Shown here: positions 27,483-47,243 of the stretch, one piece after another
Numbering within the stretch: position 1 is the first letter of the stretch
Layout: the number at the start of each line of letters is the position of its first letter
Source of the DNA: a bacterium
Lineage (GTDB): Bacteria; SAR324; NAC60-12
Length of the DNA: 64,000 nt
Direction of reading: 5' to 3'
NCBI GenBank assembly: GCA_965233585.1
Contig: CBDDTI010000746.1
Coordinates: 256,001-320,000, forward strand
Notes under the pieces: model-generated
Seen by the model: only the letters and a program-made list of their open reading frames with translations
The model's database searches: none
Told to the model about the DNA's origin: nothing
Made by a program: the position numbers and the translations under genes

Positions 27483-28424
27483 TTATTTTCCTCCTCTTCT
27501 GTATTTAATACCGATGGCTTTCGGTGGTTGGATACGTTTTGCCAAAAATATTAACGCTAGCAACGATGCCAAATAGGGCAGCATGGAAAAGATTTGATAA
27601 GGCACCTCTGGACTGTTAAATTGCAGTCGTAATTGCAATGCGTCCATCGCTCCAAACAACAATGCTGCCAATACTGCACGGGCAGGATTCCACCCCCCCA
27701 AGATTAAAGCTGCTAGTGCGATAAACCCCTTACCTGCGCTCATGTGTTCAGTGAATACAAAGACTTGGCTTAGTACTAGATAGCAACCACCCAGTCCAGC
27801 CATAGCACAGCTGGTCAAAGTAGCACAGACCCTCACCTTAGTGACATTGATGCCCGCACTGTCTGCAGCAACGGGATAATCACCGATTGCCCGCAAACTC
27901 AAGCCCCATGGCGTTTTATAAAACACCCACCAAGTGAACGGAATCACCGCATACATTCCATAGGTAATAGCATCTTGTTTAAACAACAATTCGCCGATAA
28001 TGGGAATACTAGACAACAGGGGAATCGCAACGGGATAAAATCCGGGTAACGTAGACGTTGCATCTGCCCCCAAGATTAAACGTGCCAAGTAAGAGGTTAA
28101 GCCCAGCATCAAAATATTGATGGCGATACCTGCCACAAGCTGATTAATAGCAAGTCCAACAGCCAACCCTGCCAGCACTACCCCCACCATCATGGCAACT
28201 GTAACCCCAAGTATTAACCCAAAAACTGGCGATGCTGTGACGTATGTGCCAACCGCAGCCCCAAACGCACCGCCTAAAATACAGCCTTCTAGGGAGATAT
28301 TAAACACGCCCGATTTTTCAGCAATAATCCCCCCAACCGAAGCAAAGATAAGCGGAATAGATAGTCGTAAGCTGGTGTTCAAGAACTCTAGCAACGCCTG
28401 TTGTTCAAATAAAAAATCAAACAT
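27483..28424 (-). CDS. ABC permease (nucleoside/simple sugar type)
   Basis: EKSGVFNISLEG, GKGFIALAA. Confidence 0.92.
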   Translation of the reverse strand: MFDFLFEQQALLEFLNTSLRLSIPLIFASVGGIIAEKSGVFNISLEGCILGGAFGAAVGTYVTASPVFGLILGVTVAMMVGVVLAGLAVGLAINQLVAGIAINILMLGLTSYLARLILGADATSTLPGFYPVAIPLLSSIPIIGELLFKQDAITYGMYAVIPFTWWVFYKTPWGLSLRAIGDYPVAADSAGINVTKVRVCATLTSCAMAGLGGCYLVLSQVFVFTEHMSAGKGFIALAALILGGWNPARAVLAALLFGAMDALQLRLQFNSPEVPYQIFSMLPYLASLLALIFLAKRIQPPKAIGIKYRRGGK

Positions 28425-29521
28425 TATTCTTTCCCTGCCACTTTGAAAGTATCACCTACTTCGTTGTCTAATATCTTTCGTCGGGATATGATTCTACTCC
28501 ATTTTTCTGCGTTAAATTTAAATCCGTAACTAGCCGCTACAAGGATAATGACAATGCCCTGTATAGCCTCTATGACTGTCGCTTCAATCCCTAGCGAACG
28601 TTGCATCGTCAATGCTCCTGCTTTTAATCCAGATAAGAAGAATGAAGAGATAGGGGCAATAATTGGGTTAATAGTTGCCATAAATGCGGCAACAATACCG
28701 TCAAATCCATACCCTGCAGAAAACAGATGATACAGGCGATACTTTAGACCCAAGACTTCAAAAGTTCCTGCAAGACCTCCAATAGCACCAGCAACAAACA
28801 TAGTTATCACTATACGGTATTTGACATTGATCCCTGCATATTTTGCGGCTTCAGCATTTTTCCCTATGGTCTCTAATGAAAACCCAAGTGTCGTGTATCT
28901 CAGTATGACAAACATGACAACAGCTAGTATGACCCCCACCAACACGCCAATATGCACATCAGTCATGGGCAGCAAAATAGGCATCAACAATTCTTGTTTG
29001 ATTTCTTCAGTATATGGGTAGGGTGCGCCTTCTTGCATCATGGGTCCACTTGTGACGTAGCTGACCAAATTAATCGCGATAAAGTTCATAAGAATCGTCA
29101 CGATGACCTCGTTAATGCCGTAGTATGCTTTTAGATGTCCCGGTATGAGTCCCCATATACCTCCACCAATGGCGCCAGCCCCAACAGCGATAGACATGTG
29201 TAAAAAAATCGGCATATCTGGCAACAACAACGCAGCCATGGCAGAAAACAATCCCCCCATGTAGATTTGTCCCTCAGCACCGATGTTTAACAGCCCTAAT
29301 CTGAGAGGCAATATCACTGCTAAGCTTGCCAGCAAGATAGGTGATGTTTTGACTAAGGTTTCCGATAATCCCCAGTAATCAAAGAACGCCCCTTTAAACA
29401 ATTCATAGTATGCATGAATAGGGTTTGCTCCACCAATGACGATTAAAATAGACCCCAAAAGTAATGCCAGTATCAATGCCCACAATGGCAACATGACGTA
29501 GAAAAACCTAATCGCTTTCAT
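28424..29521 (-). CDS. ABC permease (nucleoside/simple sugar type)
   Basis: NIGAEGQ, NEVIVTILMN, GYGFDGI. Confidence 0.92.
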   Translation of the reverse strand: MKAIRFFYVMLPLWALILALLLGSILIVIGGANPIHAYYELFKGAFFDYWGLSETLVKTSPILLASLAVILPLRLGLLNIGAEGQIYMGGLFSAMAALLLPDMPIFLHMSIAVGAGAIGGGIWGLIPGHLKAYYGINEVIVTILMNFIAINLVSYVTSGPMMQEGAPYPYTEEIKQELLMPILLPMTDVHIGVLVGVILAVVMFVILRYTTLGFSLETIGKNAEAAKYAGINVKYRIVITMFVAGAIGGLAGTFEVLGLKYRLYHLFSAGYGFDGIVAAFMATINPIIAPISSFFLSGLKAGALTMQRSLGIEATVIEAIQGIVIILVAASYGFKFNAEKWSRIISRRKILDNEVGDTFKVAGKE

Positions 29522-31062
29522 TGTGCCACCACACTTTCTTTAATGCCTCCCATCAATGCACCAATCTTTTCATCGGTGACTTCACTGGGGGATAATTCGC
29601 CAGTGATTTGCCCGCTGGACATCACTGCAATTCGGTCGGCAACGGTCATAATGTCGTCTAATTCTGTGGAGATGTACAATATGGCTTTGCCATTGTCACG
29701 GGCATCTAAGATGGTTTGCTGTACTGCTTCTATCGCTCCCACATCCAACCCTTTGCAAGGTTGCATCACCACCAAAAGTTCTGGATTGCGTTCCACTTCT
29801 CGGGCAAAAATCAGTTTTTGCTGATTACCACCCGACAGAAACCGCACTTGTTGGTCAATACTCCGCATCCGCACATCGTATTTTTTAACCCATGCGGAAG
29901 CCCTCGTCCGAATGTTTTTAAAGTTTAATATTCCTTTGTTAGAAAATTTAGGAGTGTCAAAATCTCTGATAACGCTGTTTTGTGCGATGGTAAAGTCTAA
30001 TACCAAGCCTGTGTGATGGCGGTCTTCGGGTACGTAGGAAATTTTATGTCTATGGCATCGGTTGTACACGGATTCGTTGGTCATATCTGTATTGTGTAAC
30101 ACAATCTGCCCAGAATCCAATTTTAGCAATCCTACAATAGCACTTGCCAATTCCGCTTGCCCGTTACCATCTACGCCTGCAATCGCCAAGATTTCACCCG
30201 CACGGATTTCAATGCTCACATCTTTTAACGCCTGCACTCCCTGTGAGTTGTGTGCATTTAATCCCTTTGCTGTGAACACGATGGGATTTTTTGCAACGTT
30301 GGAAGGGGGTGCCGATTTTTTTAATTGTGTGTGGGAGACGTCTCGCCCCACCATTAAAGTTGCCAGTTCCTTGACATTCGTCTCTGCTACATTCAAATTG
30401 CTTCGTACTTTACCATGTTGCATAATGGTGACCGTATCGGCAATCGCCATGACTTCGTCCAACTTATGGGTGATGAATATCACTGTTTTTCCCGTTTCTT
30501 TTAGACGTCTCATGCCGTCCAAAAAACTATTAATTTCGTTCGGAGTGAGTACACTGGTTGGCTCGTCCAGAATGATAATGCTTGCATTGCGAATCAAGAC
30601 TTTCAGAATCTCAATGCGTTGGCGCATACCGATTGACAACTTCCATACATATTCGTATAGATTGACATCAAAATTGTATTCTTGGCACAGAGATTCTAAC
30701 TCCTGTGCAATTTTTTCCAATTTCAATGTGATGCCTTGATGGGGCAAACCTAACGCTACGTTTTCCAAAGTAGTCAATGAATCTACCAACATAAAGTGTT
30801 GATGAATCATGCCGATACCCATTTGCATTGCTTTTTGAGGGGAGGCAATTTTGACTTTCTTGCCGTGTAATTGAATGCCTCCCTCTTCGGGTTGATACAG
30901 TCCAAACAACACATTCATCAGCGTCGTCTTTCCCGCACCATTTTCCCCCAAGATAGCATGAATGGTGCCCGATTGAATTTCTATATCTACAGAATCCAGT
31001 GCATAGAATCCATCAAAGACTTTTGACACCCCCTTTAATGTAATTGCGGATTCTGACGCCAT
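29518..31062 (-). CDS. ABC ATP-binding protein with two ATPase domains
   Basis: GENGAGKTT, LDEPT, LSGGNQQK; start set at MASES. Confidence 0.93.
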   Translation of the reverse strand: MASESAITLKGVSKVFDGFYALDSVDIEIQSGTIHAILGENGAGKTTLMNVLFGLYQPEEGGIQLHGKKVKIASPQKAMQMGIGMIHQHFMLVDSLTTLENVALGLPHQGITLKLEKIAQELESLCQEYNFDVNLYEYVWKLSIGMRQRIEILKVLIRNASIIILDEPTSVLTPNEINSFLDGMRRLKETGKTVIFITHKLDEVMAIADTVTIMQHGKVRSNLNVAETNVKELATLMVGRDVSHTQLKKSAPPSNVAKNPIVFTAKGLNAHNSQGVQALKDVSIEIRAGEILAIAGVDGNGQAELASAIVGLLKLDSGQIVLHNTDMTNESVYNRCHRHKISYVPEDRHHTGLVLDFTIAQNSVIRDFDTPKFSNKGILNFKNIRTRASAWVKKYDVRMRSIDQQVRFLSGGNQQKLIFAREVERNPELLVVMQPCKGLDVGAIEAVQQTILDARDNGKAILYISTELDDIMTVADRIAVMSSGQITGELSPSEVTDEKIGALMGGIKESVVAQ

Positions 31063-31075
31063 TTGATCAGAATAG

Positions 31076-32023
31076 TTATTGGATTTTAAGTTTACCCGAT
31101 TTGATATTGTCAAGGATGCGATTGACCTCAGATTCTACGCTACTAGGCACGCGGTCAGAATATGACCCGATACGTGTTGCCTCTGGTGTTTCAAACCCAA
31201 AGGTATAGACTTTGCCTTCCAGTGTACCTGCCTTCGCTTCAGCGATAATCACACCCAATGCACTACGCATGTCTAAGATAGCGGATTGAATCACTGTTTT
31301 GGGCCAGTCAACTTTTGCATCGTAATAGATTCCAATGCCCATGATGCCTTTTTCGCGCGCTGCTTGCAGGCTTCCTACGACGCCATTGTCCATAGATGGA
31401 AAGACCACATCAACGCCTTCGCTAATCATATTCAATGCAGCTTCTTTACCTTTTGCAACGTCGTCCCAATCGTTTGTCCATGCGGTGTAAACCGTCCCAT
31501 CTGGATTCGCCTCTTTGAATCCTTTTTCAAAGCCTTCGCCAAGCTGTACATAAAACTTCAATTTTTGGGCGCCAATGTATCCCCCTTTGCCTGTTTTAGA
31601 GGACTTACCAGAGATGTATCCCATGACATACCCCATGCTTGGAAAGTCAAAGCTCATGGTGGCAACATTTGTGTCGGCTTCTACGCCGTTAACAATCAAG
31701 AATTGTGTCTTTGGAAATCTGTTTGCTACACGGCTGATAGATTCTTGAAACTCTCCTCCGTGTCCAATGACCAAATCATAGCCACGACGGGCATAATCTG
31801 CCAATGCTTGTGGTTGGTCGGGTTGTGCAGTTTTTTCGGAGTAAGCAAATTCAATACTCAATTTTTCAGATGCCCGTTTGACTCCCTCGTAACCTGCTTG
31901 GTTAAAGGATTTATCTGTAATCACGCCCGGTAATACAATCGCCACTTTAAAATCACCAGCAAAAGCGAAGCTGGAAGCAGATACGACACCTGCCATAATC
32001 AACGTTTTAATGAAGTTTTTCAT
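31076..32023 (-). CDS. BMP-family ABC substrate-binding protein
   Basis: Signal peptide, DKSFNQAGYEG, GYDLVIGHG. Confidence 0.9.
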   Translation of the reverse strand: MKNFIKTLIMAGVVSASSFAFAGDFKVAIVLPGVITDKSFNQAGYEGVKRASEKLSIEFAYSEKTAQPDQPQALADYARRGYDLVIGHGGEFQESISRVANRFPKTQFLIVNGVEADTNVATMSFDFPSMGYVMGYISGKSSKTGKGGYIGAQKLKFYVQLGEGFEKGFKEANPDGTVYTAWTNDWDDVAKGKEAALNMISEGVDVVFPSMDNGVVGSLQAAREKGIMGIGIYYDAKVDWPKTVIQSAILDMRSALGVIIAEAKAGTLEGKVYTFGFETPEATRIGSYSDRVPSSVESEVNRILDNIKSGKLKIQ

Positions 32024-32229
32024 ATGTTTATAGCCATTCATAAAAGGTTAGGAAAACAACTTGTTAACTTTTTTCAAACCTTGCAAATTTTTCCAAAAAG
32101 TCAACAAAGTGGGTGCAGTCTAAAGCAGGAAAAAAGATAAGTCAAGTTATTTTTTTGCAAAAAAGGGGGCAATTCTGCTCCCTTTGTCTTGCCTTTGTCT
32201 TCAAGCACAACTTCCATCTTCGTTGCCTT

Positions 32230-32561
32230 TTCGTCACCTGCGGGCTTGTGTTTAAGTCATTGTGGGTTTGTTTTTTGTCATTGCTCATCTTGACCCGCAA
32301 TCTCTCTTTTTTTCTCATTCCTCACTTTCTCACCTGTGGGCTTGTTTTTTGGTCGTGGCTCACCTTGTTCCGCAATCTCATTCTTGTTTTTGAGATTTGG
32401 TGTCAAGCCTGCAAACTTCTCCTGTCATTCCTGCGAAAGCAGGAATCCAATCATGTAGGAATCTGTGCTTTGTTTAAGATAGATTCCGTGTCAAGCACGG
32501 AATGACGTCAGGATTTTGCTCATCTTGAGAACTGTCATTGCTCACCTTGACCCGCAATCTC
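32230..32561. repeat. Cluster of REP/RPE-like palindromes
   Basis: GTCATTCCTGCGAAAGCAGGAATCC, GATTCCGTGTCAAGCACGGAATGAC and several GTCATTGCTCA(C/T)CTTGACCCGCAATCTC copies. Confidence 0.85.
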
Positions 32562-32735
32562 AAATTTCCATTTTTTCAAAAACTAACCCGCTTGTTTCTT
32601 TGACTTTTTGCTCAACTCATCAAAAATAATTAAAAAAGACGATTTTCCAGTTGCATTTGTTTTGAGCAGTCTGCTAGAATCATCAACTTATTTTTTGTTC
32701 GTTCTCATTTAACCAAATCATTTAGGAGTTTTTTT

Positions 32736-33440
32736 ATATTAGAACAAATCAAATCCATTCAAATCCTTTTTGTCAGGTGCGGGTCTTTTTATGACAAGAT
32801 AATTGTTTTCCTGACACTGCTGGTCTTGGCAGGTTGCACACCGCCTGCTGAAGAAAACGAGGGGGAAGCCACCCAAAATCAAGCCACTTGCGAGGTCACC
32901 TCTGGCAGTTCTTTGGCAACGGGTCAAGAATTGGTTGCAGACTTAACATGCGCTGTATCAAACATTTATCAAGGCAAACGGTTAAGCATCACTTACGATG
33001 AAAGTTTGACGTCTTTGAAGCTGGTTGTGTCAGGGGACAAAGCAGTCGGACAGATTGGAGGGGAGACAGTTGGACAGAGTGGAACGTTAAACTACAAATT
33101 ACCTAGAAAAAAAGAGTTTCAAGCCAAGCTGAAGTTGGCAGGAGTCGCAGCAGGCAAGGGACAACTCAAGTTCAAAATCTTGAGAAAAAAATCAAATTGG
33201 GATTTTACAGTGGTCAATGGAGGTTCTAACTCATCGTCAGGTTCCAGTGGGGGAAGTAAGGCATTGACTCTGGGTGCTGCGGTCACGTCAACTGCTTTTA
33301 CCAAAATGCAGGACACATCAGGCAAAGTCAATGAACGCGAAATTCCAGTCTTGTGTCGGCTTGATACGCCTGTGGAAATTCATTATTACAAAAATGGTGG
33401 AATCCTCCACACTGTCCTACGTAGCTTCATGCAAAGCTGA
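32736..33440 (+). pseudogene. Chimeric remnant: lipoprotein 5' part fused to an aconitase A C-terminus
   Basis: AGGAG then ATA in place of ATG, lipobox LAGC, and final ~35 aa [25 protein letters not shown] typical of the AcnA C-terminus. Confidence 0.7.
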
Positions 33441-33555
33441 CTTGATTTGAACTCAGACCAATCCTGTTTGAAAGTAACATTTTTGATGAATATCCTGCAG
33501 AAGAAAGCAAGTGGGAAAGTCTTTAAACTCCAAAAATCCCTTGTCCCTAGCTGAC

Positions 33556-36500
33556 TTAAATCTCTCCACCAACACCTTTGAATTTGTCAACGAAGGCAGA
33601 GATTTTATCAAAAACGGTTTGTTTTTTCGTGTGATATTGCGGATTAAGGGGACTCATTTTGGGTAGTGCTTCGTTGAGTTCTGTGCCATTTTTGCTGGCA
33701 AATTTTCGTTCCAGTGATTTTTTGATGTAACGTTTTGCCGCTGCATCGTTTAGCTCTTCTTCTTTTATCAGTTCGGTTGCTTCTCTTTGCTGTTCTTGTC
33801 GTGCAAAAGTAAAAAATGCTTCAATCATGCTGGCTTTGTCCTCAAATGTTGCAAAATCAGCCTGATGAATGAAGTCAAGTAACAATCCTTCCTTTGATCT
33901 GTGGTCTAGGCTGGAGCTTATCATGCGTTTGACATCTTCAATCAAAGTGTCTTTGCTTTTGGTCTTTTGGTTTTTCTCAAAAATAAGCTCCAAAATATAA
34001 TCAAGGTCAATTTCTTGGGATTTGAGCAAGTCCACTTCAAACACCACATCGTCCCAATCTATCTTAGACTCGTCTTGTTTCTCTGATGCTCTTTCTTTGA
34101 TGAGCCAATCGCGAATGTCGTTATATGTAGAACGATAGTCTTGAATGGTGCGTTCTGACGGCATTTCTATTGTTTGTATGGTGGCAAAATCGTCATCGCT
34201 TAGATGGTGTTGTTTTTTAAATTCTTCTATCTCATCGGGGTTTTTTGTGTCAAGATTTTGCAAGGTTTTAAGGGTAGTAAACTCATCATAATTTTGCAGC
34301 ACATTTTCTAGCCGTAAGTACTCACCAAATAACTTGACAAATTCTTTTTTATCATCTTCTTTGTCAATTTTAGCAGGGTTAGGAAATCGTTCTTGCAAGT
34401 CCTTCACAACGTCTTTAAAACCTCGTGTCACTTGACCTGTTGCAATGTCTTTAAAGCCTTCCATGTATTCCTGATAGCTTTTCTCCAAGATGACTTGCTC
34501 GGTATGACTCCCACTTTTGCCAAATAATTTGATGGCATCTTTCGTGGCTGGTTCTAGGTTGCGAAAGGTGACAATATTGCCAAAGGTTTTGGTGGCATCA
34601 TAAATGCGGTTGGTGCGGGAAAAGGCTTGAATCAAGCCATGAAAACGCAAATTTTTATCTACAAATAAGGTGTTCAAAGTAGGAGCATCAAAGCCTGTTA
34701 AAAACATTCCTACCACGATTAACAAATCCACTTCTTGAGCCTTCACCCGCTTTGCCAAATCGCGATAATAGTTTTGAAATGCTTGGCTCTCTACACTGAA
34801 GCTAGTTTTAAAATATTCGTTATAATCAGCAATGACTTTGCCTAAAAATTCTTTTGCGGTTTGGTCCCTGGTGATTGTCTCAAAGTCCTCATCTGCAATC
34901 TCACCGATGGCATGTTGTTCTTCGTTGGCAGCAAAGGAAAAGATGGTCGCAATTTTTAGTTTCTTATCGCTGTGTTCTTGCAATGTTTGAAAGGTTTCAT
35001 AATACGATTTGGCGGCATCTATACTGCTGACGGCAAACATGGCATTAAAACCTTTGTTATTGCTTTGCAAGCGGTGCGTCTTGTGATGAAAGTTGTTGAG
35101 GACATACTGCGCAATTTCCTTGATACGATTGGGGTGCAAGAATGCTTTTTTGTCCTCTTCTGCAAAAAATTTTTGCTCATCTTGTTCGGTTTCAATCGCT
35201 TTGAACTGGGGGCGGACATCATTGTAATCTACCTTGAATTTAAGCACTTTTTCATCACGAATAGCATCGGTGATGACATAAGAGTGTAGCTCGCAACCAA
35301 ACACGCTTTGTGTTGTCTCTGCACCTGAGGCGTTGTCAAGAAAAATTGGCGTCCCTGTAAAACCGAATTGATAAAATTGCTTAAACTTCTTTCTTAAGTT
35401 TTTCTGTGCCTCACCAAATTGGCTGCGGTGGCATTCGTCAAAAATAAACACCACTTGCTGATTGTACACGGGCAAGCCTGTTTCACCTTTCATCAGGTTG
35501 TTGAGTTTTTGAATGGTGGTGACGATGATTTTATTGTCATCTTTGCTTAAATTGCGTTTGAGTGCAGCAGTGCTGCTTGAACCGTTGACGCTATCAGGTG
35601 AGAATTTTTGATACTCTTTCATAGTCTGATAATCAAGGTCTTTTCTATCCACCACAAAAAACACCTTGTCAATAAAATTTAATGCTGTTGCCAAACGTGC
35701 GGTCTTAAAGCTGGTTAAGGTTTTTCCTGAACCTGTGGTGTGCCAAATGTAGCCTCCACTTCCTGGCTTACAACTATTTTTTGCTTGATACGAGCTTTGA
35801 ATCTTCCACAAAATGCGTTCAGTCGCAGCGATTTGATAGGGACGCATGACAAGCAAAGTTTCGTTTGCATCAAATACCGAATATTTTAATAACACATGAA
35901 GCAGGGTGTTTTTTTGCAAAAAAGTAGCAGTAAAGTCTTTGAGGTCTTTAATCAAAGTATTGTCAGCCCTTGCCCAATTCATGGTAAAGTCAAAGCTGTT
36001 TTTGTCCCGTTTGGTGGTGTTAGCAAAATAGCGGGTATCCGTGCCGTTGGAGATGACAAAAATTTGCAAATACTTATACAAAGAATTGTCGCTGTTGAAA
36101 CTTTCTTTGCTGTAACGATGGACTTGATTAAAGGCTTCGCGAATGGCAACGCCACGTCTTTTTAGCTCCAAATGCACCAAAGGCAAGCCATTAATCAAAA
36201 TCGTCACATCATAGCGGTTGGCATGGCTACCTGTTTGCTCAAATTGTCCAATCACTTGCAACTTATTCTTAGCGAGATTCTTTTTGTCTAGCAAATAAAT
36301 ATTTTTAATATGTCCGTCATCAAAGACAAAATCATAAATATAGTTATCGTGAATTTTACGTGATTTTTCCTCCAAAATATCGCTGGCTTTATCCAGATAT
36401 TGCTCCACAAATCGTTGCCATTCATCATTAGAAAACTGAACGTCATTTAAGTTTTGTAATTGTGTGCGGACATTGGCAAGCATCGCATCAGGGCTTTTGA

Positions 36501-36657
36501 TATTTTTGCAATACTCATAACCTTGATTTTGCAAATCCTGTATCAATTCACGTTCTAAATCTGCCTCAGTTTGATAACTTGTTGACTGTTCTAGTTCGTC
36601 ATATTTATCCAGAACAATAAAATTATTAGATTCTATGATGGGTTTGTAATGATTCAT
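33556..36657 (-). CDS. hsdR: Type I restriction endonuclease R subunit (EcoR124-like, type IC)
   Basis: [50 protein letters not shown]; start MNHYK after GGAG. Confidence 0.96.
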
Positions 36658-36678
36658 AAGATGATCTCCAGTATTTTT

Positions 36679-36820
36679 AACCACAGATAAACACAGATAA
36701 ACACAGATAAGCTTCACAAAAAACACTATTTAATCTGTGTTCATCGTGTTCATCTGTGGTTTATTCTTAATGTTTTATTACATCTTTTTGACCACAGATG
36801 CACTCAAATTAACACAGACA
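36679..36820. repeat. CCACAGAT palindromic unit plus the left arm of the GxxExxY element
   Basis: AACCACAGATAAACACAGATAAACACAGAT...ATCTGTGTTCATCGTGTTCATCTGTGGTT, then a spacer and ACCACAGATGCACTCAAATTAACACAGAC. Confidence 0.9.
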
Positions 36821-36825
36821 GGTTT

Positions 36826-37203
36826 TCACAGAACCATTCTTTTAATCTGTATTTTAGGTGTGCCAAAGTTAATGATTAATCCCAAAGGGAGTTTTGTTGC
36901 TTTAAGATAGTTGAGAAGCTGGGCTTGATGGATATTGTTCAGAGTTTGTACTGCCTTGATTTCAAGAATCACCTGTTGATTGACCAGAATATCAGCAAAG
37001 TATTCACCAACTACTTGACCTTTGTAGGCAATAGTCATCATCTTTTCTTTTTCTGCTTTTAACCCTGCATCTGCTAATTCAATCATCATGGCATTTTGAT
37101 AGACTTTTTCCAAAAAACCTGCTCCAAGCGTGTTTGATACAGTAAAAGCACAACCAATTACCTCCCCCGAAATATCATTTAATCTGTGTTGTTCTGTATT
37201 CAT
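36826..37203 (-). CDS. GxxExxY protein (PD-(D/E)XK nuclease family)
   Basis: LGAGFLEKVY, ADILV...ILEIK, AQLLNYLK...GLIINFG; 125 aa. Confidence 0.95.
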   Translation of the reverse strand: MNTEQHRLNDISGEVIGCAFTVSNTLGAGFLEKVYQNAMMIELADAGLKAEKEKMMTIAYKGQVVGEYFADILVNQQVILEIKAVQTLNNIHQAQLLNYLKATKLPLGLIINFGTPKIQIKRMVL

Positions 37204-37396
37204 CTTTGTTCTTTTTCAATACTTTTTAATCCGTGTTCATCTGTGGTTTATTCTTAATGTTTTATTACGTCTTTTTAACCACAGATGGACTCAGATCAAC
37301 ACAGATAATGTATCACAGAATCTTCTTTTAATCTGCGTTTATCAGTGTTTATCTGTGGTTTTTTCAATACTATTTCATCTGTACTCATTTGTGGTT
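37180..37396. repeat. CCACAGAT palindromic arms: right arm of the GxxExxY element, a miniature unit and extra half-arms
   Basis: Arms at 37180-37210, 37227-37248, 37277-37360 (full hairpin) and 37376-37396. Confidence 0.9.
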
Positions 37397-37404
37397 CTTT
37401 TCAA

Positions 37405-37875
37405 TTAAATAGTAATAAAATTAAGCCGATGATTTTCTTGAATCAAGGATTTCATTGAATGTAAGGCTTGGTCAAATGCTTTTTTGTTTTGCAAAAGGCG
37501 TTGCTGATTGATGGTGTAGCCAGCCACCAAATGCTGTTTAAGAATGCCTGTTGCCCATTGGCGAAACTGCACACCACGTTGAGATTTCACACGATAACCA
37601 ACTGAAATAATCACATCAAGATTGTAATAATCTACTTGGTATATTTTGCCATCTTTGGCAGTTGTTGCATTTTTTGCAACAACTGCGGAACGTTCTAATT
37701 CTTGCTCATTAAGCAGATTTCGCAGATGACGGGATATGACTGATTTATCGTGTTCAAATAATTGCGACATCTGGTCTAGGCTAAGCCATACGGTCTCATT
37801 GTCTAGGGTAACTTTTAGCTCAAGTTGCCCGTCCTTAGATTGATAGATTTGGATTTGTTGTAGGTGGCTAGACAT
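37405..37875 (-). CDS. RhuM-like DNA-binding domain protein, probably 3'-truncated
   Basis: ETVWLS..QM..LF, YNLDVIISVGYRVKSQRGVQFRQWA; ends next to the repeat cluster. Confidence 0.85.
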   Translation of the reverse strand: MSSHLQQIQIYQSKDGQLELKVTLDNETVWLSLDQMSQLFEHDKSVISRHLRNLLNEQELERSAVVAKNATTAKDGKIYQVDYYNLDVIISVGYRVKSQRGVQFRQWATGILKQHLVAGYTINQQRLLQNKKAFDQALHSMKSLIQENHRLNFITI

Positions 37876-37878
37876 GGA

Positions 37879-39444
37879 TTATTTCACTTGGTTGCTGATT
37901 TTGAAATCTAAAAAAGATATATTCTTGCTTTTGAGTTCTTTTAGATATTCTTGACCCTCAGGGATGTTTGATTTGTCACTAGCATGCTCGTATAAAAACA
38001 GCCAAAAGCGATCTTGTTCTCGCTTATCACTTGTTTTTATTTCTTCTACTTTACAGTCAAAAAGACGTGATTTTAATCTAAACTTTTTGGTGTACTTCCA
38101 TGCCAATAGGATAGAGATACAATCATTATATTCTATAACCTTTTCTCTCCATTTCTTAGAAAGTTTACTAATTTTCACTCCATATTTAATTGCAAAATAA
38201 AAACAAAAAGACAAAGCATCAGTCTGTCCCCTTTCTATGGACTGACGAAACAATAAGGGTAGGAAAACTTTGATTGACTGTTGTTGATTGCTAGCAAAAA
38301 TCAAAACAAACCCTTCTAGTAATGGAATCAAATACGGATACAATAAAGACAAAGAAAGGATTTTCTTAACATATAATTTTTTCGCTCTGTCGGACAGACT
38401 CTTTTTAGAGATAACTTTAATGGCGTAATTAACTGGGGCAAAGTCATCATAGTCTTTGGCTATTGAGATAGCTAAGTTTAAGTAAGCATTTATTGAATTA
38501 AAACCTATTTTCTCTTTATCTGGAAAATTAAATTGATTGAGTTTTTGAGTCCATACACTCTCGTGATATTCAATAAGAGTGCAAATTGAAGTTTTCTTTT
38601 GGTTAAGTAGTAACTCATACTCCTTTAAAGCTAACTCCAATGTTTTAAGAAAGTTGTTAGCATTGTTCTCATCTTCAGCAAAATAAGTATAGTCATCAAT
38701 ATAGCGAATAACTTTTTTAAACCCCTTTTCTTGTAAGATATAATCTACAGAAGTTAGGATTATTTCAGAAACAATATTTGACGTGTGAGGGCCGATTAAA
38801 AGCCCATTAGTCTGTGAGTCGTTACAGTTTCTCACATCTCTATCCAAATTATTTGACCAGTGTGATTTTTCATCTTTGTTTTTTCTATTAGTTGGAAATC
38901 GTTTTTCTTTAGCTTCGTCTTTTCCTTGTATTGCCCAAGGAATTGAGTGGGTATAAATACTTGGAAAGCAAGTTGAAATATCTGCCTTCACTACATATTC
39001 GCAACCTAAGCAATAATCTTGTTCACACTCTTCTTTTTTCCACTTTTCCCACCCTTCATAACTCATTTCAAAAATATGCTTCTTACCTTTAATTTTTCTA
39101 ACATGGCAAAAATTGAATTTAGTTTTTGGCTTGCCTATGTGTTCATTAATAGATGTCCAATATTTTTCAATTGTTTTACACAAGTGCATGTGAGATTCTG
39201 GGTGAGGTATTGCTAATTGTCTGGAAATGCCTTTATTTCTGGTTGCCATATATGAAATGCTTGCATGCGCACAACGTTTAGAACCATTAGTCTTAAAATC
39301 AAAATCTAGTAAAAAATTTGATGAAAAACAGGGGGGTAGTTTATCGGCAAACATACCATATCCTAGCAATGCTGTATAGACATCTTCGGCATCTATAAGA
39401 TCAATATATGCTAGAGAGAAAATACTTATACCTTTATAGTTCAT
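37879..39444 (-). CDS. Reverse transcriptase, Abi/UG (DRT-like, candidate DRT4) with helical C-terminal domain
   Basis: [42 protein letters not shown], catalytic RYIDD, LNQKKT; visibly AT-richer than the flanks. Confidence 0.9.
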
Positions 39445-39519
39445 TAATAAATTACGATAATATTCATATTGCTTTTGTCTTAGCTCAATCTCACGCGGTA
39501 GCCCTTCGCTGATGCTATT
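39442..39519 (-). pseudogene. Duplicated hsdS 3' segment, in frame with the RT
   Basis: Reads [26 protein letters not shown], the same as the HsdS C-terminus at about 39698-39775. Confidence 0.9.
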
Positions 39520-39520
39520 T

Positions 39521-39674
39521 TTGTTTATCTGTGGCTTTTTCCTAATGCTTTATTACGTCTTTTTGACCACAGATAAACACAAAAAACACAGATGATGCGT
39601 CACAGAATCTTTTTTAATCAGTGTTCATCTATGTTCATCGGTGGTTAAAAAATCATCTACTTTCATCTGTGGTT
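39521..39674. repeat. CCACAGAT palindromic arms between hsdS and the RT
   Basis: Half-arm 39521-39535, hairpin 39566-39646, half-arm 39654-39674 overlapping the hsdS stop. Confidence 0.9.
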
Positions 39675-40912
39675 ACTTCCTCTGGTTTTGGAAAGCTCAT
39701 CAATAAATTACGATAATATTCATATTGCTTTTGACGCAATTCAATCTCACGCGGTAGTCCTTCGCTGATGCTATTGCTCAAAGTGTCAAATCGGTCAAGA
39801 ATGTCAACAATCTTTTGCTGAATTTGCAACGATTTTTCTGGGTTGTCGGGGCAGGGGATTGGAAATTTAGTATCTTTAATCATCGGTTTAGTGAGCTGGG
39901 GAATGCCCGCCTCTGGCACCTTATAATTTTTCTCAATAGTTTTCATAAAATAATAAGCATACTTCAAATTTATGTTGATTTTTGGAGTTAGCACTAACAA
40001 ACGAATTATTGGAAAAATAGGATAATCTCTGTAACTTGTCCAACCTATCGTACCTCTAGCTGATATAGTTAAACTTGGCTCATTCAACTTTGCTTCTTTT
40101 GTCCATCCATATAATGATTTCTCACCTATTCCGTTAGATAAAATAGGCACATTAAACTGCTCTGTTTCTATATCTGAAAATGCGTCTTTTGGTTTATCGC
40201 CACCAGCAAAGATACTAAAAACCTCCCCCAATGTTTTCCATTCTACCCTTGCACCGTCTAGTAGTTTTTGTAAAAAGGGTATCTGTGTTAATCCGTGTTT
40301 ATTTGTGGTTGAAAAATCTAATAATCTATCGCGATAATAACTATACTGCTTTTTACGTGCTGTAAGCTCTGCTGTAAGCTCTGCTGTAAGCTCTGCTGTA
40401 AGCGTAGTGAACTTATCCAAAATGTCAACTATTTTTTGCTGAATTTGTAAAGATTTTTCTGGATTTTCTGGGCAGGGAATTGGGATTTTTATTTTTTCTA
40501 CCTGATGGCTCATCAATTTTGGATTACCCATTCCAGAATAAACATGTTTTTGTGCTTCAATTGAAAGCCAGTAGAACAAAAATTTATAATTTAAAATAGA
40601 GATACTATCAATCTTTATTAAACCACAGACATTTGTAATAGAAAATTTTTCATTGCGGTAAAAAACAGTTCCTGCGTTTGCTCCATCCGTTGTCCATGTT
40701 ACAAATTCACCTTCGAAATCAAATGTGTTAATTTTACCTATCATTCCATTATTTGCTGTTTGTGAACTATAAACAGGATAGTTACCAGCATTATCAGTTA
40801 AATAACTTTTTGACATTACACGCCCCCTTTTTAAATCACAAACCTCTCCCAATGTTTTCCATTCTACCTTTGCGCCGTTGAGTAGGTTTTGTAAAAAGAT
40901 TTGTTTATTCAT
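39653..40912 (-). CDS. hsdS: Type I R-M specificity subunit (type IC)
   Basis: Two TRDs each starting [13 protein letters not shown] repeats, [17 protein letters not shown]. Confidence 0.95.
40359..40403. repeat. 12-bp tandem repeat encoding TAEL in hsdS
   Basis: GCTGTAAGCTCT three times plus a partial copy. Confidence 0.95.
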
Positions 40913-41894
40913 CGTGATTGATATTGTGTTTTTGCATGATGATAGATGCCATTAATTCTTCTTCAGTAGGTAAAATAGTTTGGTATTTTGAAGCGAATAG
41001 TTGTTTATTTTCTTTCAGTATAGAGTATTTAACGATGGTTTCGTCTTTACTGGCACATAGTATGATTCCAATACTTGGATTATCATCTTTGTTTCTTTTT
41101 AAGTCATCAAACATGCGTACATACATGTCCATTTGCCCAATATCTTGGTGAGTAAGTTTGGTTGTTTTAAGGTCTATCACAACAAAGCATTTTAACAAAT
41201 AATTGTAAAACACAAGGTCAATATAAAAGTGAGATGTTTCGGTGCTAATTCTCATTTGTTGAGCAACAAAAGAAAATCCTTTGCCCATTTCAAGTAAAAA
41301 CTCTTTTAGTTCATCAATAATGGCTTGTTCCAATGCGGATTCTTGCAGTTTTATCTGTTCAGGTAATTGCAAAAATTCCAAGACATAAGGGTCTTTGATA
41401 AAATCAAGTAGCTGTTCGTTTTTAGAAGATTTTTTTACTTTCTGTGTTGAAAGCAGTCGGGCGTAATAATTTGATTTGATATTGCGTTCTAGTTGGCGAA
41501 CGCTCCAATTTTCTGTGCGGCTTTCTTTGCAATAATATTCAACGGTTTTCGCATCATCTATACGCATAATTAACCTGAGGTGGCTCCAACTTAATTCTCT
41601 ACACAGTGTGTAGAGTTTTTCTTGGTGTGGAAATTTGAGGTAAAACTGTCTGCAATTATAAAGATTTGCATAAGAAAACCCCTTGCCAAAATCAAATTTC
41701 AAAGCACTTGAAAGCTCTTCCATAAGCCGTTTGCCATACTTTGCCTTGCTTTCACCATTTTGCTCTTCTACTACTATCCTTTTGCCTATTAACCAATACG
41801 CTTCAACCATAGCAGCATTGATAGCCGAACGCGTTTTGGATCTTGCATTTTGCAAAATACTTTTTATATCAGCGTAAAAATCTTTATTGATCAT
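40905..41894 (-). CDS. YhcG/DUF1016 PD-(D/E)XK nuclease-domain protein
   Basis: [48 protein letters not shown]. Confidence 0.93.
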
Positions 41895-41896
41895 GT

Positions 41897-42048
41897 TTAA
41901 AGCTCCTGTGTTTTAAATTCGCTGTAGCCTTCATAGTAATAGCTGACGTCAATGCCTTTCATAAAGAGGTTTCGGTCATGGATTTGGTTGGTGAGTGCAT
42001 CTTTGAGCAGTGTTTTGATTTCAAGGTCTTTGACGGGGCTTCGTTGCA
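41897..42048 (-). pseudogene. 3' remnant of a Fic-family (adenylyltransferase-like) gene cut by IS1
   Basis: QRSPVKDLEIKTLLKDALT...FMKGIDVSYYYEGY resembles the C-terminus of Fic proteins found in type I R-M loci; abuts the IS end. Confidence 0.7.
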
Positions 42049-42056
42049 GGCAGTGT

Positions 42057-42444
42057 TCACTTGATATTGTCATGATATTTTTCAAACCTTTTATAGTCAA
42101 AGAAGAGTTGTAGAGAGTGTTCCAGCATGTCAAAAGTTTTGGAATGTCGTTTAGATTTTCTCATCAAGCGAGCTAGGTTATCTCTGATGGAAGAATTAGA
42201 AGATTCAATGAGATGAGTGTTGTCTTTGCCTATCTGATGCTTTTGTGGAATTTGGAGTTGTGCAAATGCCACTTGATAGCATGAGTTGGCATCTGTATAA
42301 ATCGTTTCAATTCTAGCTCGTTGTGCTTTGACTAGTGCATACAGCTGCTTTGCTGCTGCTAATCCTTTGCCTATCACAAAGGCAATCACACATTGTTCTT
42401 GACGAGAATAGGCTGTCCAAACAGCTACTCTTTGGCTTTTTTTT
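42057..42444 (-). CDS. insB: IS1 InsB-like DDE ORF reached by -1 frameshift
   Basis: A8 slippery run at 42437-42444; the -1 frame reads VWTAYSR...IYTD...THLIESSNSSIR. Confidence 0.85.
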
Positions 42445-42772
42445 GAACAAAAGTGTAGATCTCATCCATCTCTATACTATCTACTTGTGCATGGAAACTT
42501 GGTGCGTCTTTTGGAAGTTGAGACACTCTAGCTTTTTTGATCCAGTTGACAATTGAAGCGGGAGACACCTGCAAAAAACGAGCGATCTTTCTGATGCCTA
42601 CACTATTGACATACATCTCTGAGGCTTGACGCTTGGTCTCTAGTGGGATTCTCAAACCATTTGAGGTGAATGCTCTCTGACATGACTTGCAACGATACCT
42701 CTGAACCCCTTTGTAACTTCCATTCTTGATATAAGTCTGACTCCCACAATGATGACAACTTCTCATTTCCAT
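42425..42772 (-). CDS. insA: IS1 InsA-like ORF (zinc finger plus HTH)
   Basis: CHHC...KNG...QRYRCKSC, GIRKIAR, EMDEIYTFV. Confidence 0.9.
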   Translation of the reverse strand: MEMRSCHHCGSQTYIKNGSYKGVQRYRCKSCQRAFTSNGLRIPLETKRQASEMYVNSVGIRKIARFLQVSPASIVNWIKKARVSQLPKDAPSFHAQVDSIEMDEIYTFVQKKAKE

Positions 42773-42859
42773 TCCTCAAATTCACTCTCACATGCAATGA
42801 CAATACCAACTAAACACTGCCCTGCTAAGGGGGGTCAAGTGAAGAAATTAGGAAAAAAG

Positions 42860-42975
42860 AGAGGTTGCGTGGCAAATCTGCAATGACGGGAAAAACGGGT
42901 AGGAATTGGAACACCTCGTCTTTCGGCTTGTTGCTGGCTTACCTCTGGTCATTGCGGGTATTGACCCGCAATCTC
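42860..42975. repeat. REP-like palindromes
   Basis: GTCATTGCGGGTATTGACCCGCAATCTC and an inverted degenerate copy. Confidence 0.7.
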
Positions 42976-43054
42976 TCTTTTCTTTTTTAATTTTTGTCCC
43001 CTGCTTGCTCACAAAAACACCCTCAGCGTGAGAATTGAAACACTTCAAGTGCTG

Positions 43055-43798
43055 TCATTTGAGTTTTTGAGCAATTTTGAAATACAAGAAGTTGGGTAGG
43101 AGTTTGAGGAGTTTGAGGAAAAAGGTGAATCTTTTGGGAAAATGAATTTCAAAATGCTTTTGTTGTAGTTGTGTTGCAATGATGGTAGCTGCTTCTTGGG
43201 TTGAGAGTTGAGCAGGCATTTTGAAGTCATTTTTGGCAGTCAGGCGGGTTTCTACAAATCCGGGATTGATCAATTTGACATCTAAAAACTCTCCATATTC
43301 CGCGTTTAAACTTTCAGCAAGATTGATCAAAGCGGCTTTGGTGCAAGCATAAGGCTGTGCTTTTGCCAAACCCCGATACCCTGCCACGCTGCCACAAATC
43401 GCAATTTGTCCATGCCTTCCATTCACAAATGACGGAAGCACGGTTTGAATTGCATAAAACGCTCCCATCAAATTGACTTGAATTGTCTGCTCTATGTTCT
43501 GTTGAGTGACTTCTAGCAAAGGGCTTGGTTCATAAATTCCTGCCATGAAGACTAAACTGTCCAAAGTTTGCCAATGGGATTCAATAGTCTTCCATGCCTT
43601 CACAAGTTGCGAGGGCTGGGTGATGTCTAATTCTAATGCCAGATGTTTTTCAATTCCAATTTGCTGATGAATTTGAGCTAAAGCGGCTTGACTTCTGCCA
43701 GAAAGTGCCACTTGATGACCCTGCTGGGCAAGTTTTAAGGCAAGGGCATGTCCAATGCCATGACTTGCCCCGATGATCCAGAATTTTTTTGAAACCAT
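43055..43798 (-). CDS. SDR-family oxidoreductase
   Basis: GASHGIG and YACTK. Confidence 0.92.
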   Translation of the reverse strand: MVSKKFWIIGASHGIGHALALKLAQQGHQVALSGRSQAALAQIHQQIGIEKHLALELDITQPSQLVKAWKTIESHWQTLDSLVFMAGIYEPSPLLEVTQQNIEQTIQVNLMGAFYAIQTVLPSFVNGRHGQIAICGSVAGYRGLAKAQPYACTKAALINLAESLNAEYGEFLDVKLINPGFVETRLTAKNDFKMPAQLSTQEAATIIATQLQQKHFEIHFPKRFTFFLKLLKLLPNFLYFKIAQKLK

Positions 43799-43846
43799 GA
43801 TTCAGATGATTCAATAGATAGCAATGATTGAATAGACAACTATACT

Positions 43847-45076
43847 TTAGAAAGGTTGCAAGATGAGGAATGTCTTTGACGTGCCTTCTTCAGAAAATCC
43901 AACATCAAAACGAATGACGACACTGGACATGATAGCACGGATGCCCACTCCATAATTAGTTTTTAAATTGTCCCACAGTTTTTCATAAAATTGCTCAACA
44001 TTGCCTTCTTCGTAAAAGTAGACAAATTGTAAAGCCTCCAAAGCATCATTAGAAAGTGCAAAGCCGTCCCCTGAAAGCCCAAAATCACCAATCCAAGAAT
44101 ATCGGTATTCTGCGGCATAATAAAGTGTGTGGAGGTCAGTAAACCGACGGTTTGGGTAGCCTCTCATTTGAATTGCCCCGCCCAAAGAGTTCCCCTCTCT
44201 TCTGCTGACAGGGACGTCTTCATTTTTGTTGATGACGGTAGAAAGGTAGTAGTTCATCGCTAATGTATGATTGCTATCTTCACTCCAAAACACAGGCAGG
44301 AATAAGCTGACTTCACGGCTGAAGATGTCAAATGACTCATCAGTTTCGTTTTTGTGCATAAAATTTCCACTTGGACGACGTTGGCTTAAAATGGTGATGG
44401 TTCTCAAGCCAAAACGGGAGTCAAAGCGGTCATCAGTTAAGTCAAGCTCAAAACGATAACGATACCCTGCGGCTTCTGTGATTGTGTCAGCTTCCGGAGA
44501 AGCCGGACCAGAACTGTCTGCTTGATTGCGAAGTTCTTCTTGAACACTTGGAATGTCTGCGGCTTCTTCGGGGGCAACACGGATATGATCGTTTGTGTAA
44601 TAAGTTTCATAAGAAAGTTTTGCGCGATCTACTCCAAAACGCATCTGTGTTTGGTACGCAATCAGTTTGAGTTCTCCATTGACGGGAAAGGGGTCATTGG
44701 GGGAGTCTGTGCCAACATCATAGACATCTAATTCTTTGAGGGCAATGTCTGTTCCTCCTCCAGATAACGTCATAGAAAACCAGCTTTCTTTGTCTCCTAA
44801 TAGAAAAATATCGTTAACAGCAACACCTTTGATGTGAAAATTCCCATTTTGAAAGCTGATGCCTGCTATGTCTGTTCCTGAATCAAAAATATTGGCAACA
44901 CCAAACACCCCCCCATATAACTCACCGATTCCTTCAACGAACACAAACCAAGGTAAAATATAATAAGCATTCGCTCTGCTTCCTTCTTGCTCTCTCCTTC
45001 TTTCAATGGTGTAAGGATTAGCAAAAACTGAATCCACAATCAAAAACGAAATGATGAAATAAAATATCTTTTTCAT
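43847..45076 (-). CDS. Omp85/BamA-TamA-like outer-membrane barrel protein without evident POTRA domains
   Basis: Signal peptide, LGG..MRGYPNRRF, GVGIR, C-terminal QPF. Confidence 0.7.
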   Translation of the reverse strand: MKKIFYFIISFLIVDSVFANPYTIERRREQEGSRANAYYILPWFVFVEGIGELYGGVFGVANIFDSGTDIAGISFQNGNFHIKGVAVNDIFLLGDKESWFSMTLSGGGTDIALKELDVYDVGTDSPNDPFPVNGELKLIAYQTQMRFGVDRAKLSYETYYTNDHIRVAPEEAADIPSVQEELRNQADSSGPASPEADTITEAAGYRYRFELDLTDDRFDSRFGLRTITILSQRRPSGNFMHKNETDESFDIFSREVSLFLPVFWSEDSNHTLAMNYYLSTVINKNEDVPVSRREGNSLGGAIQMRGYPNRRFTDLHTLYYAAEYRYSWIGDFGLSGDGFALSNDALEALQFVYFYEEGNVEQFYEKLWDNLKTNYGVGIRAIMSSVVIRFDVGFSEEGTSKTFLILQPF

Positions 45077-45183
45077 AAAATTTACCTGCCTTTGACGAAT
45101 GATTAAAAAAGACTTTATATTTTAAAATAAAAAGAAAAAGGCTGTCAAATAAAAACAAATAAAAATATTTTTGATAGAAATTT

Positions 45184-45915
45184 TTAGGAGTGCTGTGATT
45201 TGGTGCTTTGTTTCTTTCCCCAATGAATGACGCCTGCACCGAACCAAAATTTTTGAACCTTCACTTGACAAAGTCCCATTTGGTTTAAGAGAGCAGATAC
45301 TTTTTTGGGAGGGGGGAAATCTTTGGCGGAGTGTGGAAGATAGCGAAATGCCTCATTTTTTGAACCCAGCAATTTTCCAAGCAGGGGGGCAAAGGTAAAA
45401 AAGACAACATGTGCAACTTGCTTGAAAAGAGGCCAAGTGACCTGACCTGTTTCAAGTGAGACAAATGTGCCATGAGGTTTCAGCACTCTGAGAATCTCGT
45501 AGAGTCCTGTTTGAAGGTTGGCAAAGTTACGTAAGCCATAACTGACTGTCACAACGTCAAAGGTTTGGTCTGCAAAAGGGAGCTGAAGGGCATCACCTTG
45601 TAGCCAGCAGATTTGCTGATTTGTTGCCTTGCGTTGATTGGCGTGCCAAAGCATTTGAGCAGAAAAGTCAAGGGCGTACACTTTAGAAAAATGTTGGCTC
45701 AATGAAAAAGCCACGTCGCCTGTCCCACAACATAAATCAAGGCATGTTGCATCTTGAGCAGGCAGACACTTTTTGACCAGCATGTACTTCCAATAACGAT
45801 GAATGCCCAACGTCAACCAATCGTTAAACCGATCATAAATGGGAGCAATCTGGTCAAATTGTTGATGGACGTAGCGAGCTTTTTGCTCTTGGGAGGGGAG
45901 CTGGTAGCGGCTCAT
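45184..45915 (-). CDS. ubiE: Ubiquinone/menaquinone biosynthesis methyltransferase
   Basis: FDQIAPIYDRFN, LDLCCGTGD, GDALQLPF, YGLRN. Confidence 0.9.
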   Translation of the reverse strand: MSRYQLPSQEQKARYVHQQFDQIAPIYDRFNDWLTLGIHRYWKYMLVKKCLPAQDATCLDLCCGTGDVAFSLSQHFSKVYALDFSAQMLWHANQRKATNQQICWLQGDALQLPFADQTFDVVTVSYGLRNFANLQTGLYEILRVLKPHGTFVSLETGQVTWPLFKQVAHVVFFTFAPLLGKLLGSKNEAFRYLPHSAKDFPPPKKVSALLNQMGLCQVKVQKFWFGAGVIHWGKKQSTKSQHS

Positions 45916-45924
45916 TGACCCAAC

Positions 45925-46971: not shown

Positions 46972-47243
46972 AACTTGTTCCTTTGGTGAATAGATAATCA
47001 AACGCCTAAATTCATAAAATTCAGGCAAAGCCTGCCATTATATCCTATATTCCTGTTTTGAAACAAATTGAAAACAAAATCCTGTTCGTTTTAGGTCGTT
47101 TTTTTAGAATACCAAACTTATCACGCACCCATGAGGACTCTACTTACAAACCTAAAGGCAGAAATTTTTTAATTACTTTAAATTTGCGTTAGCAATAATC
47201 TCTTGTGCCTTTCGCCTTTCCAACTCATCGGCAATCAAGGTAT

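Follow-up and report, generated by a model that had tools for sequence, protein, structure and literature searches.

Introduction

Miniature inverted-repeat transposable elements (MITEs) are internal-deletion derivatives of parent insertion sequence (IS) elements and keep both ends of the parent. In Leptospira an intervening sequence (IVS) bearing an open reading frame (ORF) is found in the 23S rRNA, and accessory genes such as prrC and the rlo genes are embedded in type I restriction-modification (R-M) operons. REPINs are doublets of repetitive extragenic palindromic (REP) sequences that occur with a REP-associated tyrosine transposase (RAYT) (PMC3116915, PMC3337134), and a REP is defined as a repeat of 20-40 nt, one end of which carries a GTAG or CGTC tag (PMC3733652). 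In this study we analysed a stretch of 64,000 nucleotides (hereafter the window; contig CBDDTI010000746.1 of assembly GCA_965233585.1, positions 256,001 to 320,000) from a bacterium of the SAR324 lineage. In the window a gene for a GxxExxY protein lies between inverted repeats that we call arms, and hairpins made of similar arms but carrying no gene are found close by. The protein belongs to PDDEXK_3, which is given as a group of unknown function with multiple transfers in the 2012 survey of the PD-(D/E)XK superfamily (PMC3424549).

The locus has traits in common with each of these systems. Copies C and D, which have no gene, look like internal-deletion derivatives in that the two ends and a remnant of the coding sequence have been retained; they differ from MITEs in that no DDE or other transposase accompanies them, no target-site duplication was seen (by eye, in the relative's genome G005) and the copies are tandem and local. 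Like prrC and the rlo genes, the closest relatives of the GxxExxY gene lie between hsdS or hsdM and hsdR, whereas more distant relatives were found between housekeeping genes, with 34/40 loci lacking an hsd neighbour. The likeness to REPIN/RAYT systems consists of a gene in one or a few copies flanked by an inverted short palindromic repeat, of dozens of gene-less inverted doublets in the intergenic DNA of some genomes (G001, G002 and G005) and of a repeat type that goes with a particular gene copy. Here, however, the enzyme is of the PD-(D/E)XK type (PF13366) and not a Y1 HUH transposase (PF01797), the arms consist of three or four units of about 10 nt ending in (A/G)(A/T/C)CCAC without a GTAG/CGTC tag, the loop encloses the gene, whose start codon is often supplied by the arm, and nothing is dispersed in the window's own genome. 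The 23S rRNA IVS of Coxiella burnetii is likewise a small ORF within complementary ends inside a host transcription unit, horizontally acquired, tolerated by the host and prone to decay of the ORF (PMC4990558). The cassettes reported here differ from it in their position at junctions of protein-coding genes (40 loci scanned) instead of 23S helix 45 or 25, in an ORF for GxxExxY instead of an S23p / four-helix-bundle protein, and in arm mismatches without a bias towards the RNA strand. A search of the literature outside subscription journals and supplements found no published description of a pairing between GxxExxY genes and such arms.

The GxxExxY cassette

The arrangement is best explained, with a probability of roughly 0.55, as one decayed representative of a family of GxxExxY cassettes that are framed by hairpins and occur widely; the local copies would stem from duplication and deletion, and the arms would be cis sites of the encoded nuclease. 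Such a cassette consists of a gene for a PD-(D/E)XK nuclease of about 125 aa with an array of three or four units of about 10 nt on either side, the two arrays being inverted to each other, and in this genome it sits in an apparently degenerating type IC R-M operon. Coordinates of features are window positions, and the position of the arm cluster in the genome is given on the window's contig, C746. According to the ORF list and the profile scans every gene in the region runs on the minus strand. Inverted-repeat pairs (I) and direct-repeat families (D) are numbered as in our repeat lists. The cassette and its copies comprise the following features.

36679-36761, gene-less hairpin A (DNA fold -19.6 kcal/mol, z -7.3; pairs I25 and I3)
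36762-36789, spacer copy 1 (families D1 and D4)
36790-36820, arm downstream of the GxxExxY stop codon, the left arm (pairs I10 and I15)
36826-37203, minus strand, GxxExxY / PD-(D/E)XK gene, 125 aa (TIGR04256, PF13366)
37182-37211, degenerate arm over the start codon, coding for MNTEQHR (complementary to 36791-36819 at 20/29)
37212-37248, TTTTTCAATACT, then a second, better-kept arm upstream of the gene (family D2, pair I15)
37249-37276, spacer copy 2 (family D1, 86% over 98 nt; colinear with unit B)
37277-37360, gene-less hairpin C, behind the RhuM fragment (pair I4, 80% of 30; DNA fold z -4.0)
37361-37396, lone arm behind hairpin C, counterpart of 37212-37248 (family D2, 84%)
39513-39534, lone arm abutting a remnant of the hsdS 3' end at 39445-39520 (pairs I14 and I19)
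39535-39565, spacer copy 3 (spacer and arm start 40/47 identical to 36762-36808)
39566-39646, gene-less hairpin D, decayed, just behind the hsdS stop codon (pairs I1, I2 and I5)
39655-39675, minus strand, arm words encoding the last HsdS residues VTTDESR and the stop (pairs I17 and I18; ORF translation)
40281-40310, minus strand, complete three-unit arm in frame within hsdS, coding for 10 residues

Each arm is built of three units of about 10 nt, CAC-N-GAT plus 3 nt, inverted on both sides of the gene, and the two-unit pattern CRCNGATNNNCRCNGAT occurred 6 times in the window against 0 expected. The initial annotation had placed the gene between inverted arms; both arm strings, at 36791 and 37182, were correct, and beside the 20/29 pair that it named a better bracket exists between 36791-36812 and 37226-37247, complementary at 18/22. 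Since 6/1000 shuffles equalled this match, we concluded that the arms of the gene-bearing copy are real but decayed. The conserved spacer that it had described ahead of the left arms was found at 36762, 37249 and 39537, and spacer copy 1 resembles the hsdR leader (36652-36678, family D4). The arm hairpins occupy the junctions around the GxxExxY gene and the region behind hsdS; folded as DNA, hairpin D was weak (z -1.7).

The hairpins were also compared with known RNA and recombination elements. With permissive thresholds Rfam gave no family at threshold in 36400-40000, only look-alikes such as miRNA models (32 bits vs 99), and no rRNA match in the same region. A known RNA family as the identity of the hairpins was ruled out, as all these matches were sub-threshold. 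An integron attC site was set aside on inspection of the sequence, in which three 10-nt units and no R/L boxes are seen and the outer arm words fit RYYYAAC/GTTRRRY poorly; no integrase search was made.

The product of the gene matched TIGR04256 at 153 bits over profile positions 2-116 of 116, that is over the full length and above the curated cut-off of 35, and PF13366 (PDDEXK_3) with E 5.4e-43 and 146.5 bits (cut-off 22). PF13366 was the sole Pfam match of the ORF besides a weak, sub-cut-off DUF7487, and the Pfam scan found no transposase domain in the cassette. The motif G29-F-L-E32-K-V-Y35 and the residues D71, E81 and K83 were invariant in 17 homologues. The AlphaFold2 (AF2) model, with a pLDDT (predicted local distance difference test) score of 78.7, shows the elements H-H-E-E-E-H-E-E in a compact PD-(D/E)XK, restriction-endonuclease-like alpha/beta fold. 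Foldseek of this model gave Cas4 SSO0001 (4ic1) as the top match (E 3e-4, template modelling (TM) score 0.50), followed by Cas4 4r5q, lambda exonuclease, Bax1 and Hjc, with TM about 0.5; no solved structure of a sequence relative was found in the PDB at E up to 1. The GxxExxY / PDDEXK_3 family is very large, with at least 7995 proteins passing E 0.001 in a search of 5.8 billion proteins. In the window's own assembly TIGR04256 matched once.

The link between gene and arm extends into the coding sequence. The right arm encodes the N-terminus MNTEQHR, as had been noticed before, and homologues at 65-79% identity start with M(N/D)(T/A)D(K/R)HRLN, encoded by the same arm words. Where the N-terminus of a homologue had been mis-called, the extension has the sequence ICVYLCSSVV, a translation of the opposite arm.

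Matched arms around relatives' genes

Relatives of the gene were collected by a scan of genome contigs, in which 556 were confirmed; the following counts refer to the best 80 of the 556. In each locus the best ungapped inverted repeat between the gene flanks was compared with the maximum of 100 shuffles. Matched arms framed the gene in 57/80 loci, and 51 scored 15 or more, so that the bracketing of GxxExxY genes in other genomes, for which a test had been suggested, was indeed found. Six of the 23 misses were inspected: four (L016, L017, L034 and L046) carry arms outside the search frame or with variant units, L036 has only scattered units and L033 is flanked by a different repeat. The arm words are lineage-specific (CACAGATGAA, CACGGATT, CGCAGATGA, AGGGAT, CAGGATTTA, CGCTGA) yet complementary within each locus, and the loci span Proteobacteria, Bacteroidota, Acidobacteriota, Planctomycetota, Verrucomicrobiota, Chloroflexota and Methanosarcinales. 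Almost all genes of this branch are framed by such unit arrays, which offer a specific, testable candidate DNA partner for the GxxExxY family.

Within single genomes the arm type follows the gene copy. In genome G058, from the window's family, each of the four paralogues is flanked by a different matched arm type, and three of the four lie within a single BREX operon, between its genes; in G005 a second paralogue has different arms. The BREX operon (locus L126, G058:C437:1-19900) comprises BrxB, a large protein, a PglX-like methylase and BrxL together with the three GxxExxY cassettes, whose arm types are CACGAA, CACGGAAA/CACTGAAAA and CGCAAAT.

The Pfam scan of neighbours covered loci L001-L040, with 134 of 264 flanking ORFs. 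A type I R-M operon was the context in 6/40 scanned loci, the closest relatives only (L001-L005 and L013), where the cassette is placed next to YhcG, Fic and RhuM genes, with hsdS or hsdM on one side and hsdR on the other. The other 34 had no hsd neighbour, and we concluded that the R-M link belongs to this sub-lineage and not to the family. These remaining loci lie between housekeeping genes, for example nitroreductase and cobQ in seven zetaproteobacterial or allied loci.

The cassettes are tightly placed between genes, with a co-oriented gene upstream in 51/69, downstream in 56/70 and on both sides in 39/62 loci, and the stop codon of the host gene often falls within the arm. Together with the three cassettes between genes of one BREX operon, such positions would suit a hitch-hiker at the RNA level, of the kind of the Coxiella IVS, a selfish element with an ORF that RNase III excises (PMC4990558). 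The arms would then pair in the transcript of the host operon and be cut by RNase III, by which the GxxExxY message would be freed or silenced, and the gene-less hairpins would be RNA processing, stabilising or terminator elements. The observed co-orientation is, however, near the level of ordinary bacterial gene order. Among 1787 arm positions in 51 loci the mismatches compatible with a G-U pair numbered 59 in the sense and 59 in the antisense strand and hence gave no indication that a sense-strand RNA stem is under selection. Mispairing at the central base of the unit is about as frequent as expected by chance, and no Rfam family reached threshold for the window's hairpins. We consider an RNA-level origin of the arrangement unlikely, though a fair alternative.

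Gene-less hairpins in other genomes

Genomes were scanned with the three-unit arm pattern; the reversed pattern, used as control, gave 0 matches everywhere. The figures for TIGR04256 are places matched, some of which are fragments or halves of one copy.

G001, 2.7 Mb: 48 arms, TIGR04256 at 1 place
G002, 3.4 Mb: 90 arms, TIGR04256 at 2 places
G003, 5.3 Mb: 1 arm, TIGR04256 at 5 places
G004, 12.2 Mb: 3 arms, TIGR04256 at 7 places
G005, 7.2 Mb: 94 arms, TIGR04256 at 4 places, two being halves of one broken copy

In G001, G002 and G005 the arms are scattered along the contigs. The gene of G005 exactly fills the loop: its ATG falls within the final unit of one arm, and its TGA overlaps the opening unit of the opposite arm. 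In G005, 18 hairpins were examined; they have the same arms as this gene, with loops of 4-110 nt that are unrelated, and some of these arms begin right behind an apparent stop codon (by eye). Many arms of G001 lie within larger mosaic repeats, and some are full hairpins; 5 other genomes (of 6) of the order of G001 were without arms, the gene not having been searched for there.

The number of arms varied within genera, with 2 in G013 vs 33 in G014 and 0 in G028 vs 79 in G029. At two of two orthologous intergenic sites for which the flanks were found in both genomes, the hairpin was present in G014 and absent in its congener G013, so that the presence/absence polymorphism named earlier as a check exists. 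Such differences in number and presence are indirect signs that the associated protein may mobilise the repeats. The G013 sites are filled by a different repeat with the words GTCATTCCG...GGAATC (L140 1269-1541 and L143 2328-2568), and a similar repeat was seen on contig C295 of the window's genome, 1-1000 (G000).

In certain lineages the gene-less hairpins appear to have spread to dozens of copies between genes, in a manner reminiscent of REPINs and their RAYT gene. The initial annotation had read the locus as an autonomous and a non-autonomous element of REPIN/RAYT type. At the level of the family this likeness was supported, given the 57/80 framed loci, the scattered hairpins, the co-occurrence of arms and gene and the two sites that differ between congeners; for the window's own genome it was not, as all copies there are local. 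It may be that the gene-less hairpins depend on the nuclease as REPINs depend on RAYTs.

In 88 genomes of the window's class, arms and gene occurred together in 17, arms only in 4, the gene only in 7 and neither in 60, counts in which related genomes are not independent and in which co-occurrence at low arm numbers is inherent, since every gene comes with two arms of its own. At least 10 arms were found in 8 of the 88, and the gene in 7/8 of these. Both limits on the counts weigh against the explanation proposed above, as do several further points. Arms without a gene over the cut-off were present in G032 (1), G027 (1), G049 (6, a single contig) and G026 (11), and G003 and G004 have genes but few arms of the three-unit pattern. 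The window's genome has one GxxExxY gene, with arms confined to one 3.7-kb stretch. No target-site duplication was evident, by eye, at the 18 G005 hairpins. No strand-joining activity is known for a PD-(D/E)XK nuclease alone, unlike the HUH enzyme of RAYTs, so that such a nuclease would not by itself account for the arrival of a hairpin at a new site.

Part of the same evidence could be taken to mean that the arms form a REP-like family of their own, which host recombination or another enzyme has spread, and that the GxxExxY gene is a passenger that landed in it or was retained. The 4/21 arm-bearing genomes of the class without the gene, the mosaic repeats that hold many of the G001 arms and the Y1 transposase (PF01797) matches in G005, G002, G020 and G029 would agree with this. 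Against it, no PF01797 match was found in G001 despite 48 arms, and the Y1 places of G005 adjoin no listed arm place of that genome (lists compared by eye). An arm type that tracks the individual paralogue within one genome is not expected of a passenger in a common repeat, and the pairing persists across phyla with very different arm words. A passenger gene is therefore in our view quite improbable.

Possible role of the arms

In the 18 G005 hairpins (L102-L119) CAC and GAT were near-invariant and the rest of the unit almost invariant, whereas the base between CAC and GAT was hypervariable and matched between the arms in 0.3-0.6 of the 18. Invariant half-sites with a free middle base fit recognition of a sequence better than stem stability alone. 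The pattern thus fits better with arms that are recognised as a sequence with two half-sites repeated at each helical turn.

The period of about 10 nt of the conserved half-sites, which suggests binding on one face of the duplex, and the overlap of arms with start codons would also be in keeping with operator or iteron sites. In that case the arms would serve self-regulation and the regulation of the R-M operon, and the scattered copies would represent a regulon or chromosome structure without mobility. The catalytic residues of the nuclease are invariant, though, and arm numbers vary widely within genera (the G013/G014 and G028/G029 pairs above), presence differs at orthologous sites, and hairpins of G005 stand behind stop codons and not at promoters (by eye). 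Purely regulatory arms were accordingly judged very improbable.

For the family as a whole, the most likely role of the arms is that of cis sites for the nuclease whose gene they enclose. We infer that the units are recognised by the protein, which would also contribute to their spread. A further-reaching proposal, which we put forward tentatively and with the odds against it, is that a second, HUH-independent class of REPIN-like replicators exists, with GxxExxY proteins as its dedicated nucleases. Every paralogue would be specific for its own array of the CAC-N-GAT type and would nick or resolve the extruded hairpin, which would seed gene-less copies at gene junctions; arms landing in hsdS (40281-40310 and the hsdS end) would remodel the length and the pairing of the specificity subunit. 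If the protein does act on the arms, bacteria and archaea would have a second within-genome repeat replicator besides REPIN/RAYT, with an unrelated enzyme, and many unexplained intergenic hairpins would be accounted for.

Origin of the gene-less copies in the window

The stretches flanking the gene body in unit B (36762-37248) have colinear counterparts in unit C (37249-37396), with 79/92 positions identical on one side and 31/37 (37360-37396 against 37212-37248) on the other. The loops at 37277-37360 and 39566-39646 had been said to match the 3' end of the gene, and this was confirmed: for loop C and for loop D the best local match to the gene interval was 36826-36844, that is the stop and the last codons, with a score reached by 1/1000 and 27/1000 shuffles, respectively. 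The match of loop A to the gene interval was not significant (253/1000 shuffles).

The word TTTAATCTG, which according to the initial annotation occurs at both gene ends, was found there (36841 and 37178), at 36729 and 37327 and at two more window sites. In alignment A2 the last codons of the gene (AAATACAGATTAAAAGAATGGTTCTGTGA) align with the third arm unit and the loop of the miniatures. From this alignment the 3' end of the gene carries an arm-like unit, and recombination between it and the unit at the first codons would give exactly the miniature. The deletion origin suggested earlier for the miniatures is thus supported. The spacer resembles the hsdR leader; the duplicated unit therefore included the hsdR junction, which points to tandem duplication.

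Taken as a sequence of events, recombination between arm units would have produced a tandem duplication of the unit with a copy of the hsdR leader, and the gene body would have been deleted between the arm unit at the first codon and the arm-like unit at the last codon, leaving hairpins C and D and probably A. The single gene and the confinement of all copies to one type IC R-M operon likewise argue for local duplication and deletion and not transposition. The local copies look like products of tandem duplication plus internal deletion.

The assembly comprises 12,006,139 bases in 747 contigs. When the three hairpin units were compared with it by blastn-short, matches with E below 0.01 were found solely at C746:292660-296315, and the core word ACCACAGAT occurred 112 times vs 93 expected, which is no enrichment. 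Dispersal of the copies through this genome, as implied by the initial annotation, was ruled out on these two results. Five public runs contain the stretch; Logan contigs of four of them, compared over 36300-39800, showed no joints, insertions or deletions, a result without weight for variation at the locus because these contigs break at the repeats. In Logan contigs of runs X1, X2, X3 and X5 the 31-nt arm of hairpin A (window 36673-36710) was seen with 1-2 differences and unrelated flanks, once within a longer unit array, in contigs that may come from another organism.

Gene-less or multiplied copies were also seen in relatives. At the type IC hsdS|hsdR junction of G058 two gene-less hairpins stand in tandem, and their loops retain AAAAGAATGTTCT, a relic of the end of the gene. 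In L001 (3330-3700) and L002 (3330-3540), from Halothiobacillus and Sulfuriferula, the arm behind the gene is tandemly repeated with scraps of the LGLLIN codons between the repeats, and in L005 (1-820), a Bacteroidales record, the entire cassette is present as a tandem duplicate.

The host operon

The cassette is surrounded by the following genes.

33556-36660, minus strand, hsdR, type IC (domains HSDR_N, SWI2_SNF2, T1R_D3-like and EcoR124_C)
37405-37875, minus strand, RhuM-like fragment (PF13310; between hairpins C and D)
37879-39444, minus strand, Drt4-like reverse transcriptase (PF00078; between hairpins C and D)
39653-40912, minus strand, hsdS with a TAEL repeat run (PF01420 in two stretches; translation)
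40905-41894, minus strand, YhcG/DUF1016 nuclease gene

Distinctive of the window are the cassette within a type IC R-M operon, the arm-coded parts of HsdS and the miniatures with clear relics of the gene end. The hairpins are seen to reshape a defence operon, since they are found at each of its gene junctions, encode the end and the middle linker of HsdS and mark the joins of other defence genes. Hairpin A lies directly upstream of hsdR, which starts at 36660. In L001 and L002 hsdS likewise ends inside an arm. The arm at 40281-40310 lies exactly between the two half-hsdS repeats, and the related hsdS of G058 has no such insert; the insert could alter the spacing of the two target-recognition domains.

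An hsdM gene was not seen when the larger ORFs of 41800-48900 were inspected; for 27000-33556 the ORFs were listed without a Pfam scan. The operon may have lost its methylase and be decaying. The reverse transcriptase matched NF041749 (Drt4) with 383.7 bits, below the cut-off of 450, and Drt3b weakly; it is probably a Drt4-like antiviral enzyme, the class being uncertain. An IS1-like element at about 42060-42830 lies directly upstream of YhcG (region 41897-43050).

A second copy of the hsdS 3' end was detected at 39438-39464 (93% to 39694-39720), with the remnant extending to 39520, and its reading frame leads into the ATG with which the Drt4-like enzyme starts. Because of this in-frame second end, the block of reverse transcriptase and RhuM genes looks joined in by recombination at the arm-adjoining end of hsdS.

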